Both the position numbers and the translations under genes were made by a program. The notes beneath the pieces were generated by a model that did not search any database, was not told the DNA's origin, and saw only the letters and a list, made by a program, of their open reading frames with translations. A stretch of 52,089 bases of DNA from contig JAZDPV010000001.1 of assembly GCA_043797265.1 (NCBI GenBank), positions 1-52,089 on the forward strand, in the 5' to 3' direction. This document shows positions 25,388-31,501 of this stretch, in pieces. Numbering within the stretch: the stretch's first letter is position 1; each line of letters begins with the position of its first letter. This stretch comes from an archaeon (GTDB lineage: Archaea > Nanobdellota > Nanobdellia > Pacearchaeales > GW2011-AR1).

Positions 25388-25948
25388 TCAAAACTCAACA
25401 CTCTCAGCAATCTGTTTCGACGACATTCCCAAACTTGTCCCAAACGCTTTCCTGCCTTTCTCGTCGATAACTTCACTCTCGCTCAAACCAAGCGACGCAA
25501 TCCCAATCCTACATCCCGCCTTCCGGCAAACTTTCACATTCTGAATAATTCTCCCCAACCTCAACGCCTTTTCTTTTCCATTCAACTTTCCAACTTCCGA
25601 CATATCAACAACAACTAAAATATTTTTCTCTTTCGCAATCTTCGCGACGACGTGATTGATTCCCGAATCTCTTTGTTTCAATGTATCGCTTTTCGTTCCC
25701 CGCTCAGGCGAAATCAAATAATCAATCCGCAAAGTCTCGACAATCCGTCGATTAAACGCATCATCCCCGCCGACAATCCCAATCTTTTTATCAGAACCTT
25801 TCAGTGAATCAACAATCCTCCGAGCTTCCTTTTCCGTCGCCCCAATTAAATATCCATCGCAAGAATCATCACCAAAAATCCCCTCCTTCGATTTAACCTT
25901 CTTTAGATAAATAGAACCTTTCAAATTAAATAAATTAATATCTCCCAT
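25388..25948 (-). CDS. rnp3: RNase P protein subunit p30 (Rpp30)
   Basis: FNRRIVE, LISPE, DTLKQRDSGINHVVAKIAKEKNI. Confidence 0.85.
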   Translation of the reverse strand: MGDINLFNLKGSIYLKKVKSKEGIFGDDSCDGYLIGATEKEARRIVDSLKGSDKKIGIVGGDDAFNRRIVETLRIDYLISPERGTKSDTLKQRDSGINHVVAKIAKEKNILVVVDMSEVGKLNGKEKALRLGRIIQNVKVCRKAGCRIGIASLGLSESEVIDEKGRKAFGTSLGMSSKQIAESVEF

Positions 25949-25949
25949 A

Positions 25950-26783
25950 TCATAAATTGTCCAAAGGACTTTTTATATTCTCCAGTTTTTGATTAGAAAC
26001 ATGAGTATAAATTTCTGTCGTAGAAACATCACTATGTCCAAGCAACTTCTGAATATATCGAATATCAACTCCCTGCTCCAAAAGATGCGTCGCAAAACTA
26101 TGTCGAAGCATATGTGGGTGAATCCTAATTCCAATTTTCTTTCCAAGTCTCTCTAAAACTTTTTGAACAGACTTCTTACTATATTTCCTGCCATCTCTCC
26201 CTTCAAAAACATAATCCGTTCGAAATTTCATAGAGCTATAATATTTCAATAAATCATCCTTCAAATTATCAGACAAAATACTAATTCTATCTTTCTTCCC
26301 CTTACCCAGCCTAACCAAAATCAGTCCCCTGTCAAAATCAATATCACTTCTTTTTAAATTCAACAACTCCGAAAGCCGAAGTCCAGAAGAATAAAACAAC
26401 TTCACAATCAATCGATGTTTTATGTTATCACAAGCCTCAATCATTTCTTTTATTTTTTCAGCACTAATAACTTTCGGCAAAGTTTGTTCTTTTTTCTTTA
26501 TAGGAATTTGCTCAAAATCAAACGGTTTATTCAATATTTCACGAAAAAAGAAAGCCACCGCGGCATATTTTAACCTCATAGAATTAACCGACAAATTATC
26601 GCAAGACAAAAGATAAGATTTAACACTTTCATTAGATAGATTAAGACTACATTTATGACAATAATCTATGAATCCCATAATATGAAAATTATATGACCTA
26701 ATCGTTTGAACACTAAACCCATGTAATTTACACCTATTGATTATTCTATTTTGATATTCAGACCGAACATTCTGATAATACAT
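25950..26783 (-). CDS. Tyrosine recombinase (XerD/IntI-like) with SAM-like N-terminal domain
   Basis: GLRLSE, GKGKKDR, HMLRHSFATHLLE, LLGH, EIYTH: full catalytic set; start could be TTG 26792 or ATG 26783. Confidence 0.95.
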   Translation of the reverse strand: MYYQNVRSEYQNRIINRCKLHGFSVQTIRSYNFHIMGFIDYCHKCSLNLSNESVKSYLLSCDNLSVNSMRLKYAAVAFFFREILNKPFDFEQIPIKKKEQTLPKVISAEKIKEMIEACDNIKHRLIVKLFYSSGLRLSELLNLKRSDIDFDRGLILVRLGKGKKDRISILSDNLKDDLLKYYSSMKFRTDYVFEGRDGRKYSKKSVQKVLERLGKKIGIRIHPHMLRHSFATHLLEQGVDIRYIQKLLGHSDVSTTEIYTHVSNQKLENIKSPLDNL

Positions 26784-26835
26784 CAGCGACAAAATAATAA
26801 CATTTATTTAAATTCTCGTTGAAATTATAAAATTA

Positions 26836-26878
26836 TAACATCTACTAGATAGATTTGTATATCTAATAGATGTTAGCC
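26836..26878. other. attI-like recombination site: 40-bp palindrome ending in GTTAGCC
   Basis: TAACATCTA-C-TAGATA-N8-TATCTA-A-TAGATGTTA directly upstream of the recombinase; GTTRRRY-like core. Confidence 0.6.
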
Positions 26879-27086
26879 AAAATTTTCTTACTGCCTCCTA
26901 GCGTCGGTAAACCTCAAATTCTGATTTTGATATCTTCGTTTAACGCTCCAATGCGAAATTAAAATTGTCGCATAACATCGCTGATTAAACGAAATTGCTG
27001 AAAATAAAAACTAAAATTGTCTACCTAACCCCCACGGAAAGAGCGCGCGAGTTTTCTACGAAAACAGATAGTCGGCTTCGCCGAAA

Positions 27087-27353
27087 TTATTTTAATTCTT
27101 TTGCAACTTTTTCGCCATCTTTTGTTCTTCTGTAAATCCTTCCTGTTCTTTCTTCAGGGTTTACAACTTCAACTAATTTCTTTTCTTTCAATTCAGACAA
27201 TGCACGAGAAACAAGATTGAAATAAGTATTGCTGTTGCTTTTGTAAATTTTTATAACCAATTCAGAGGGCATCAGAGGTTTATCTAAATTCATAAAAACC
27301 TCTTTCCTATTCTTCCCTCTTTTTACAAAACCTATTGCTTTTAGCAATTCCAT
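27087..27353 (-). CDS. Winged-helix (ArsR/MarR-like) regulator
   Basis: PLMPSEL...VSRALSELKEKKLVE...GRIYRRT. Confidence 0.85.
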   Translation of the reverse strand: MELLKAIGFVKRGKNRKEVFMNLDKPLMPSELVIKIYKSNSNTYFNLVSRALSELKEKKLVEVVNPEERTGRIYRRTKDGEKVAKELK

Positions 27354-27460
27354 AGCAATCTATAAGCAATTTGGCTTAAGAAACAAATTCAACAATCTAT
27401 TAGCAAATTGTAAACGAAAAAAGAAAAGTTTTTAAAGGAGTTATTACACATTAATTCATT

Positions 27461-27970
27461 ATGGCGAAAGAAAATCATACCTACCAAATTATTTCGGTAA
27501 TTCTTTTAGTTGCGGTAATCACTTTTGCAGGATTATATTTTACAAAATCTGCTCCTTCACAAGAAATAAACGAACAAACTTGTTCAGATTTTATTAACGA
27601 ATGCCCAGAAATTCCGGCAGAAAAGGCTTTAATATTTGGAGCTTTAAATTCTTGGGGAGAAAATCTTTATGACTCTAGTAAAAATCTCTTTACTGTGGAA
27701 ATTTATAATTTTGGAAATGTTGAAGCAAGAAATGTAGAAGTAATATGCGATGTTACTGTTGGAGATGAAGATGGATATGAGGTGTCAGATATTCCCGTAT
27801 CAACAGTTACAAAAAGGATTGGAAATGTAGCATCAACATCTTACAAATATGTAGACCTTGAAAACAATATAAACAAACAGAAAGAAGGGAATTATCCTCT
27901 TGCAAGCTGTCGTATAAGTTATTGTGAAAACTGTGAAATTTTATCTGACAGAATTCCCGATTTAGAATAA
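27461..27970 (+). CDS. Membrane-anchored exported protein, Ig/CARDB-like
   Basis: N-terminal TM; VEIYNFGNVEARNVEV; several Cys. Confidence 0.75.
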   Translation: MAKENHTYQIISVILLVAVITFAGLYFTKSAPSQEINEQTCSDFINECPEIPAEKALIFGALNSWGENLYDSSKNLFTVEIYNFGNVEARNVEVICDVTVGDEDGYEVSDIPVSTVTKRIGNVASTSYKYVDLENNINKQKEGNYPLASCRISYCENCEILSDRIPDLE

Positions 27971-27971
27971 A

Positions 27972-28331
27972 ATGTTTTTCATATTTGGTTGGGGACATAG
28001 AAATATAAAAAATTTTGGTCAAACTCTTGTCCAAAAATGTCCTGTTTGTTCTCACACTTCTCATTATTCTCTTGTAAGAACAAGAGATTGGTTTACTTTA
28101 TTTTTTATTCCAATCTTTCCCTATGAAACAAAATATTATTTAGAATGTCCTGTTTGTAAAAATGCTTTTGAATTAGAGAATGAAAACAACATAGAAAAGT
28201 TAAAAGAAATCGCGGAACTTATAGAAAAATTTGACAATAAAGAAGTAACAAAGAAAGAATTAAACAAACAATATAATAGTTTAGTGAAAGAAATAAAACC
28301 AGAAACAAAAGAAGAAGATGAAGAAGATTAA
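27972..28331 (+). CDS. Zinc-ribbon protein (zinc_ribbon_15-like)
   Basis: MFFIFG...CPVC...WFTLFFIPIFP...CPVC. Confidence 0.88.
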   Translation: MFFIFGWGHRNIKNFGQTLVQKCPVCSHTSHYSLVRTRDWFTLFFIPIFPYETKYYLECPVCKNAFELENENNIEKLKEIAELIEKFDNKEVTKKELNKQYNSLVKEIKPETKEEDEED

Positions 28332-28501
28332 TTTTCTTTTTTAGAAAAAAAGAAACAAAAAAGCGCGCTCTAAAACCAACGACAATTTTAAAGACAATTT
28401 TCAGCAACTACGATATCAAAGAATTTTCGGCAGTAAAAAAACTCTCTCCGCTACGCTCCGAGCCACGCCTTGCAGGCTCTCCTCACTTCGTTCGTCGGGT
28501 C

Positions 28502-28611
28502 GGCTAACAGCGATTAAAGAGAAAATCCTTGCAGGATTTTCCCAAATTAATTTCTCATCCAGCTCGTAAACTCGCGGGAGAAATTAACTTTCTTTAATCG
28601 CGATGTTAAAC
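28502..28611. other. attC-like site (110 bp)
   Basis: TAACA-GCGATTAAAGA pairs with TCTTTAATCGC-GA-TGTTA (2-nt bulge); two internal hairpins GAAAATCCT/AGGATTTTC and TTAATTTCTC/GAGAAATTAA. Confidence 0.7.
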
Positions 28612-28645
28612 CCAAAAAATCCGCCCTCATCCGCGAAATCCGTGG

Positions 28646-29338
28646 TTAAAATTTCTCTCCTCTAATAATAGTCCCAACAAACTTCTTCCCACGCAAAATC
28701 CCATCAATCGCTTTCAACGACCCGACGATATAAGTTACAATCTTCTCGTCCCGAATTACCCTCGCCGCCGATTGGTCCAAAACAAAATGCTGCCCCGCTT
28801 CAAACTTAATTTTCCTAAACATCCCATAAAAATCATCCCAGCTAATCCTCGAAATAAATCGCGCTCCCTTGTTCGTCTTCGGATTCGCGCTATAAAGCCC
28901 CCGAACATTCGTCAAGTTAATAAACGAACATCCCAAATATCCAGCCAACTTCGCCGCAGTCCCGTCGCTGGTATTTTTCCTGTAATATCTCAACGCCCCG
29001 CAAAACACAACCCGATTTTTTCTCAACAAATTCTTAACCCTTTTCATGTTCAACGGCACATCCTCATTAGCGACCTTCCCAAAAATTCTCGCCATAAACC
29101 CGGCATGCAATCTTGTCACCACAATCCCCTCCATCGACCGCGCTTTCATCCCCTTCTTTAACTTTTTCAACGCTCCCATATACCTCCGCGCCGTCGACCC
29201 CCCACCAGTCACGACGACAAACCTCTTGTCTCCATGCGAATCCAGCAATCGCTTAAACCTAACCAAAAATTTATCATCGACATCATCCGGCACAATCCTC
29301 GACCCACCCAGCGAAATCACCCAAACTTTTTCCATCAT
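28646..29338 (-). CDS. pyrH: UMP kinase
   Basis: VISLGGS, VVTGGGSTAR, TSDGTAA, NLTNVRGLY, AGQHFVLD. Confidence 0.93.
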   Translation of the reverse strand: MMEKVWVISLGGSRIVPDDVDDKFLVRFKRLLDSHGDKRFVVVTGGGSTARRYMGALKKLKKGMKARSMEGIVVTRLHAGFMARIFGKVANEDVPLNMKRVKNLLRKNRVVFCGALRYYRKNTSDGTAAKLAGYLGCSFINLTNVRGLYSANPKTNKGARFISRISWDDFYGMFRKIKFEAGQHFVLDQSAARVIRDEKIVTYIVGSLKAIDGILRGKKFVGTIIRGEKF

Positions 29339-31082: not shown

Positions 31083-31157
31083 ATCAAAATTAAGAAGACC
31101 TTATTTATAAAAGTATTGGGAAGAGGATAATAAATATAAATTTATTATAAATTTATA

Positions 31158-31228
31158 TGGGCGCAGGAGGAATCAAACCCCCGCCTCCCGGGCTGGAGCC
31201 GAGCAGACTATCATTATCCGATGCACCC
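31158..31228 (-). tRNA. tRNA-Trp(CCA)
   Basis: Acceptor GGGTGCA/TGCGCCC; anticodon arm CTCGG-CTCCAGC-CCGGG; atypical A19 and T56. Confidence 0.8.
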
Positions 31229-31268
31229 AATATAAAAATAAAGATAACACATCTTTTAAATTTAATCA

Positions 31269-31398
31269 TGGGCCGCAGGAGGTGAGCAATTCGCTTTTGA
31301 AAAATAATTTTCGTAATATTTTTTCAAATGCAAATTGCGAATTAGAACCCCCGCCTCCCGGGCTGGAGCCGAGCAGACTATCATTATCCGATGCACCC
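31269..31398 (-). pseudogene. Second tRNA-Trp copy interrupted in the T loop by a ~60-bp hairpin
   Basis: Identical to 31158-31228 through the 5' T-stem, then insert, then CCTCCTGCGGCCCA (one extra G). Confidence 0.75.
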
Positions 31399-31501
31399 AA
31401 TACAAAAATAGAGATAATACAATTTTTAAATTTAATCCCAACAAACAAACGCAGACAAACCGCGCAACATCCCACTTCCAGCGACGACAAAGTTGGCGCG
31501 G

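Follow-up and report, generated by a model that had tools for sequence, protein, structure and literature searches.

The two ends of the gene cassette at 26873-28605 of the window (the whole stretch of DNA analysed, 52,089 nucleotides, which is contig C1 of a 625-kb genome, G000, of 83% completeness) are, by their sequence, complementary to each other and not to the ends of other cassettes. We consider it probable, at roughly 60%, that these arms would act as an intramolecular clamp in single-stranded DNA, holding both att sites together for excision and completing the site on the excised circle. The best explanation of the region as a whole is an integron-like platform, made up of a recombinase, attI, one cassette and attC, which is inserted between the p30 and pyrH genes. 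The system works like an integron, lacks two of the defining features of integrons (the I2 helix and the extrahelical bases of attC) and adds a self-pairing that spans the cassette.

The locus reads, in order, an RNase P p30-like gene (25388..25948, minus strand), a tyrosine recombinase gene (25950..26792, minus), an attI-like site (26836..26875), the three-gene cassette, an attC-like site (28502..28611, folded as the bottom strand) and a pyrH-like UMP kinase gene (28646..29338, minus; 138 bits to TIGR02076, under its cut-off of 158). The two outer genes are host flanks: p30 directly abuts pyrH in 8/29 genus relatives and two more have a gap of 34 nt, so the block of recombinase, att sites and cassette is an insertion. 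Attachment sites of attC type are found at the same p30/pyrH place in four relatives, and at L001 a recombinase 87% identical to that of the window occupies the same locus beside a different cassette. In G233 (L140/L047) a recombinase of another subclade (44% identical) adjoins p30 and an attC adjoins pyrH, on two contigs; the same locus is apparently used there by another family member. The window's cargo consists of an 88-aa winged-helix-like protein (27087..27353, minus; weak Pfam matches under cut-off to DUF4364 and HVO_A0261_N), a 169-aa protein with a hydrophobic N-terminus (27461..27970, plus; no match in Pfam or NCBIfam, hence no family, and a best Atlas score of 0.89 to unnamed clusters, which is a lead only) and a 119-aa zinc-ribbon protein (27972..28331, plus; PF17032 at 47 bits, cut-off 28.9). 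Two homologs of the winged-helix protein lie at L006 3145-3814, a Bacteroidota locus fetched for a distant recombinase.

The recombinase (280 aa) keeps the catalytic residues R139, K167, H227, R230, H253 and Y262 and stands beside the array, as in integrons. The IntI-specific insertion with the I2 helix is missing: against IntI1 and IntI2 there is a 40-column gap, and the archaeal XerA structure 4A8E, its best solved relative (E 1.3e-50), aligns colinearly with small gaps only. Profile scores are 235.8 bits for NF040815 (cut-off 220) and 195.2 bits, in two stretches, for TIGR02249 (cut-off 265). No IntI, as a protein above the TIGR02249 cut-off, was found in any of five genomes, namely the window's own (83% complete) and four array-bearing relatives. 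In a tree of 97 proteins, a quick version with no bootstrap, the recombinase falls into a 39-row clade (SH-aLRT 97) apart from IntI, and other I2-less subclades have arrays too. A second recombinase of the genome, on contig C18, belongs to a separate clade and groups with paralogs of G049, G089 and G149. Close homologs of the cassette-associated enzyme are patchy (18/301 family genomes at E<=1e-78; 19/301 class genomes at E<=1e-72), the nearest named ones being Nanoarchaeota, Woesearchaeota and Pacearchaeota records. Judging from linkage, the enzyme presumably acts on the att sites next to it.

The attI-like site contains TAA (26864-66), a 6-nt overlap TAGATG (26867-72) and TTA, forming here a 16-bp palindrome whose hairpin is predicted at p 0.90, and crossover would take place at G26872|T26873. 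The TAA-6 nt-TT motif is conserved upstream of related recombinases, the sequence differs after G|TT between genomes, L001 included, and contigs from sequencing runs end loose at 26871. The perfect palindrome of the window is not general, because an inverted copy of the L arm, at 9/11 or better, is present in only 12/34 sites, a few of which have misplaced anchors. The attC-like site has AAC at 28506-08, an unbulged 7-bp L stem (28514-20/28591-97), spacers of 6 and 8 nt and a three-way junction, with the likely crossover at G28605|T28606; its fold (-29.5 kcal/mol, z -7.44) was equalled by 0/200 shuffles. Since two strict attC finders had missed many sites, these were collected by profile and hand curation. 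Spacers of 6/8 nt recur in 25/38 complete attC sites and an uninterrupted 7-bp L stem, followed by a conserved mismatch and the junction, in 24/38. The extrahelical bases of the integron L box (PMC5027507) are thus not seen, and a comparable role could fall to a bulge located farther outward or within the 6/8 spacer.

The bottom strand gives the more stable attC fold in 40/42 sites. Small hairpins are biased by strand: 72/90 triloops are GNA on the bottom strand and 1/90 on the top, compared with 40 and 46 of 385 in a background of 300 kb of genome. In DNA, d(GNA) loops have a very high stability (PMC3201870), and the same loop occurs in the aadA1 and catB3 attC sites; the bottom-strand GNA triloops are therefore a pointer to single-stranded DNA. 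In related DPANN genomes, arrays of attC-like sites follow attI where contigs permit (at least six sites each in L058, L059 and L081), and these related arrays have the tandem cassettes with folded attC sites and AAC/GTT cores that are expected of an integron. Contigs in L070, L071, L080, L082, L083 and L086 stop at or just past attI; because many do so, arrays are often unassembled. In L085 (G697) the attC sites of the array are of a different type, very short and nearly the same as one another, and the recombinase beside them is 50% identical to that of the window. Shrunken attC sites with only 4-12 nt from AAC to GTT, suggesting off-register recombination, are found in L180 (about 2200) and L173 (about 1240).

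The original prediction described the cassette ends as colinear inverted repeats, and all seven of its blocks are present in the proposed places and order (left and right arm, respectively): GTTAGCC (26872/28502), TTACTGCC (26888/28429), AAATTCT (26916/28420), TTTGATATC (26926/28412), TTGCTGAAAAT (26995/28397), TAAAATTGTC (27012/28381, with a second copy at 26960) and AGAGCGCGC (27040/28363). The hairpins reported in the gaps are there as well, at 26935/26985 on the left and 28460/28475 on the right. The arms had been drawn too short, at 26872-27048 and 28363-28508, and reach inward to about 27086 and 28332. Thus the left arm (26872..27086, plus) comprises P1 (26872-78), an AAT-type linker, P2 (26888-95), P3 (26916-34), P4 (26995-27005), P5 (27012-21), P6 (27040-48) and a small hairpin (27072-84), and the right arm (28332..28508, plus) a palindrome (28333-55), P6' (28363-71), P5' (28381-90), P4' (28397-407), P3' (28412-26), P2' (28429-36) and P1' (28502-08). 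What is unusual about these ends are the inner blocks; the terminal GTTAGCC/GGCTAAC, which had been counted with them, is an ordinary R'/R'' match that classical cassettes have too. The gap hairpin of the left arm (26935..26993) has the layout of an attC turned inside out (L', short hairpin, TAAC, spacer, L''), with an R' profile score of 24.2 at 26976 on the bottom strand, compared with 24.6 for the true attC. Opposite the short AAT linker lies a branched element (ACT ... TTGCA hairpin ...; 28441..28501, plus) that precedes AAC in nearly every cassette, its loose motif being found at the 3' end of 47/48.

Since global alignment failed from long unequal gaps, the arms were compared by a chain of exact blocks (at least 7 nt). 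The chain sums to 61 nt, or 54 without the terminal 9 nt, while 5,000 dinucleotide shuffles gave a mean of 8.3 and a maximum of 30, and 19,889 pairs from the same genome at the same spacing a maximum of 39 (38 in the AT-rich subset of 4,233), so the matches clearly exceed the shuffled and AT-rich controls. Plain local alignment, a weaker test because the gaps are long, was matched by 0/3,000, 42/3,000 and 0/3,000 shuffles under three gap settings and by 18/5,000 window pairs. Elsewhere in the genome there is no copy of the arm sequences at useful scores among the matches listed, the right arm with attC has no match in phages or plasmids and a 24-nt arm pattern none in viral contigs. Folding of 26830-28615 with DNA parameters (multiloop energies are approximate) predicts P2-P6 (p 0.86-0.98), the attI hairpin (p 0.90) and the attC stem (p 0.93-0.95) together, which bears out, in the model, the proposal that the cassette can fold back as single-stranded DNA. 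The suggested competition of this fold with the att hairpins is limited to the 7-bp terminal helix P1 (p 0.05), which loses to them; the inner helices coexist with both. The arm helices do not pick a strand, because the energies of the whole region are near equal (-219.2 for the bottom and -215.8 for the top); the wobble bias is modest, with 12 A.C and 5 G.T.

The pairing is specific to each cassette. For 42 curated cassettes with both ends (a set that excludes cassettes truncated at contig ends and the L085 type with its short attC), and after trimming of the terminal 9 nt, the gain in joint folding is -13.8 kcal/mol for cognate ends against -1.45 for non-cognate ones, and a cassette's own right end ranks first in 30/42 and in the top three in 38/42 (permutation p<5e-5; the cassettes are related and the counts overstate independence). 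The same-orientation control in these 42 cassettes is null (p 0.77), in 4/42 the cognate ends show weak pairing (ranks 7-15) and P1 of L001 is mismatched. The expectation that classical cassettes are without such arms was borne out in 14 cassettes of class 1/2 integrons (the boundaries of two are doubtful), which have no cognate effect (-1.19 against -1.25, p 0.52). Several of them have terminal matches of 11-13 nt, so P1 is classical and P2 onward is not.

Homologs of the window's left arm occur in 15/400 class genomes from six families, where, as had been anticipated, the arms bracket unrelated cargo: among 16 cassettes with arms of this family, counting the window's own, cargo similarity is seen only among three proteins. 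The predicted pairing is kept while the blocks change on both sides together, P2 being TTACTGCC/GGCAGTAA, TTTCCAATCTCC/GGAGATTGGAAA or TATTTCCACTTTC/GAAAGTGGAAATA and P3 TTTGATATC/GATATCAAA or GTTGTTATC/GATAACAAC. In 8-10 cassettes the scaffold stops abruptly at shared motifs on either side, and two sequencing runs contain five contigs with a loose end at 28331. Window-like arms are deep repeats in four unrelated metagenomes. One X6 contig has the window's left arm and similar cargo with another right arm after 28362, so a mismatched cassette exists or was misassembled. Over window 26931-28362, the cassette on contig 27 of run X6 is nearly identical except within the 169-aa gene, where 332 other letters stand in place of 337 nt. 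In 12 internal cassettes of relatives P2 is present in 12/12, and the core goes to P1 in seven and to attC pairs in five. A helix with AAT at its opening and ACT at its close is characteristic of the arms (46/197 arm helices, 0/94 interior repeats), and one or more modules of the AAT/ACT or AAT/ACG kind are present in 36/48 cassettes. The same AAT/ACT helix closes the second hairpin in 28/34 attC sites; since it occurs at both, the cassette stem takes the place of attC hairpin 2. The long arms look like nested copies of one module, derived partly from attC pieces. In L002 the same cassette start occurs again after the first attC and in L087 some 330 nt are duplicated, both upstream of the recombinase; these are either tandem copies or assembly effects.

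In many cassettes of relatives the fold-back continues through the coding sequence. Exact inverted 11-mers number 149 in the ORFs of single-gene cassettes against 15.3 expected from synonymous shuffles, compared with 19 against 15.2 in host ORFs, 16 against 17.9 in AT-matched neighbours and 2 against 0.7 in classical cassette genes, and in L072 ten nested blocks, each of 10-15 bp, are spread over the whole of a 921-nt cassette. The effect is significant in 25/40 single-gene and 1/7 multi-gene cassettes; the window's own three genes have none (4 observed, 5.4 expected). Coding fold-back drops as the non-coding arm pairing grows (rho -0.52, p 1.6e-4, n=47). Six homologs of the L072 gene that have no visible att sites have no fold-back, and in a non-cassette homolog of 71% nucleotide identity 47/90 pairs are broken. 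Positions in helices differ from this homolog about as often as others (53/180 and 168/582), with no enrichment of synonymous change (20:33 and 60:108), so selection and fold-back copying are not distinguished. The coding helices are almost wholly Watson-Crick, with eight mismatches in all, too few for a wobble test.

In the mechanism that we propose, the bottom strand would become single, either as lagging-strand template or as incoming DNA, and P2-P6 would zip the two ends, bringing the folded upstream att site and the cassette attC side by side. The core could then slide between two hairpins and a four-way junction, and the Xer-like enzyme would either exchange one strand pair at G|TT or resolve the junction. 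P1 would close and the circle be released with its attC fully paired and extended by the long stem. The circle would later enter double-stranded attI by one strand exchange and replication, as CTX phage does with XerC, because the attI and attC overlaps in the window are of different length (6 and 8 nt) and have only GATG, beside the crossover, in common. Long shared arms of the window's type may be a reusable scaffold for cargo incapable of folding on its own, while in short-armed cassettes the gene itself would provide the stem. Xer enzymes without I2 do recombine the folded single-stranded DNA of CTX phage (PMC4246890, PMC7790495); against a need for a clamp, classical cassettes of up to 1.5 kb are excised without arms (PMC5371416). 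More tentatively, and with clearly less confidence than in the clamp itself, we suggest that the system may be an integron able to do without I2, in which each cassette is a self-pairing rod of single-stranded DNA whose ends pre-form a Holliday-like junction, to be resolved by an ordinary Xer-type enzyme, and in which new cassettes arise when cargo is taken up by the reusable scaffold at a constant inner boundary (27086 and 28332 here), the gene then evolving to fold.

Could the fold instead serve the free, travelling cassette, as a compact hairpin-rich rod that resists nucleases and single-strand binding protein during uptake and offers a ready attC? Pairing deep in genes, far from the sites, as in the ten nested blocks of the 921-nt cassette, would fit this, as would the same arms in distant families and in unrelated metagenomes and a solo cassette on contig C5 (about 13043-12413, minus), located at a place other than attI. 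However, the conserved shape of the AAT linker/branched-element junction, which is repeated inside attC, goes beyond what protection needs, and we find this account rather unlikely as the main role, although it is compatible with the clamp. The solo cassette has an 83-aa gene, private unrelated arms and a long branched attC, with no recombinase within the surrounding 5 kb, and lies between two housekeeping genes which we take to be gatE and aspS from their resemblance. It is more doubtful still that the complementarity is left over from the making or ageing of cassettes, with fold-back copying or repair on folded single-stranded DNA perfecting near-matches and little selective role. The unbiased divergence of helix positions and their lack of synonymous enrichment agree with such copying, as do the nearly pure Watson-Crick helices and the unfolded cargo in long scaffolds, as expected of recent captures, but a phase of clamped single-stranded DNA would still be needed and copying does not explain the fixed junction geometry or the strand-biased triloops.

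A further reading, in which the arms descend from attC as homologous relics downstream of divergent genes and owe their inversion to that of the genes alone, is largely refuted and retains very little probability: the left arm does hold an inside-out attC, both outer genes end at the arms and arm modules are common to several cassettes, yet same-orientation similarity is null, cognate pairing is specific and arms are found around single genes as well as around genes of the same direction. Among RNA elements, deltaviruses and Obelisks are rod-like circular coding RNAs; they resemble the cassettes in forming a circle of roughly 1 kb with coding sequence paired end to end, whereas the cassettes are apparently DNA, non-replicating, integrated in the chromosome and diverse in cargo. 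RNA parameters also favour the bottom strand. Nevertheless, it is hardly probable that the folded molecule is RNA, such as a cassette transcript in a reverse-transcription route, since the loops are 3-nt GNA (90 triloops, 19 loops of four bases) of the DNA-stable kind, G.U is not enriched in the coding helices, Rfam gave only two chance matches far under the gathering score and the folded strand tracks attC and not gene direction. Inversion of the interval, which the original prediction had offered beside excision, has the least in its favour and is scarcely credible. Inverted repeats do flank the cargo and genes of single-gene cassettes point both ways (22 plus, 18 minus), but the polarity of the scaffold is constant, with the AAT linker attI-proximal in 42/48 cassettes and its mirror at the far end in 3/48, and the att cores are in direct orientation, unlike the inverted sites, found in both orientations, of an invertible switch or shufflon. 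No strand-changing joints were seen in four contig sets, which drop rare variants and come from runs in which at most 12% of the sequence words were present.

With integrons the present system shares the recombinase gene divergent from attI and cassette array, the G|TT insertion point in an attI beside that gene, AAC...G|TT cores, a probable folding of the bottom strand, a short R'/R'' end match and variable cargo at one locus. It differs in having no IntI insertion, a 6-nt attI overlap, an unbulged 7-bp L stem and three-way junction in place of extrahelical bases, long cassette-specific arms, fold-back through genes and genes in either direction; the latter run both ways, those of the window divergently, which would speak against promoterless cassettes read from Pc. 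Ghaly et al. 2022 reported archaeal integrons and CALINs, among them six Pacearchaeales genomes with attC and no IntI (PMC9668308), which may represent the present system; the accessible part of the supplement yielded no site sequences for comparison. A term search of the accessible text of bioRxiv 2026.05.13.725050 gave no mention of integrons. CTX phage attP(+) with XerC/XerD (an IMEX; PMC4246890) is similar in its I2-less Xer-type enzyme on folded single-stranded DNA and in the single exchange by partial overlap homology that we propose; here, in contrast, there are a dedicated recombinase with its own site and gene-cassette arrays, no phage is involved and identity of the site with chromosomal dif is not claimed. 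Archaeal XerA/dif (PMC8371274; PDB 4A8E) has an enzyme of the same length class and the TAA-6 nt-TTA core, with a 6-bp central region between inverted arms, as in the window. Unlike a conserved, near-universal chromosomal XerA gene, the present recombinase is patchy, missing at the empty locus and in a clade apart from the genome's second recombinase, whose clade is common to G000, G049, G089 and G149.

A literature search, mostly outside subscription journals, found neither these arms nor a coding fold-back of cassettes described, and no report of an I2-less enzyme running cassette arrays. According to PMC7790495, cassette capture requires I2, no other protein has this helix and intermediates are lacking; here cassette arrays lie beside an I2-less enzyme and DNA structure appears to do the job of the helix. 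The first formation of cassettes has been called largely unknown (PMC5371416), and one scaffold with many unrelated cargos and sharp edges makes cassette genesis testable. Genes with codons pairing end to end in single-stranded DNA would mean a constraint of a new kind on coding sequence and leave a trace of cassette history that can be searched for, and a candidate is suggested for the enzyme serving the integrase-less attC clusters of Pacearchaeales. If I2-less rod integrons are real, they would offer a present-day model of the stage before IntI and make the route by which cassettes arise visible. Further along the window, a tRNA-Trp gene (31157-31229) is accompanied, 170 nt away, by a 92-nt partial copy at 31346-31437 that is 95% identical.
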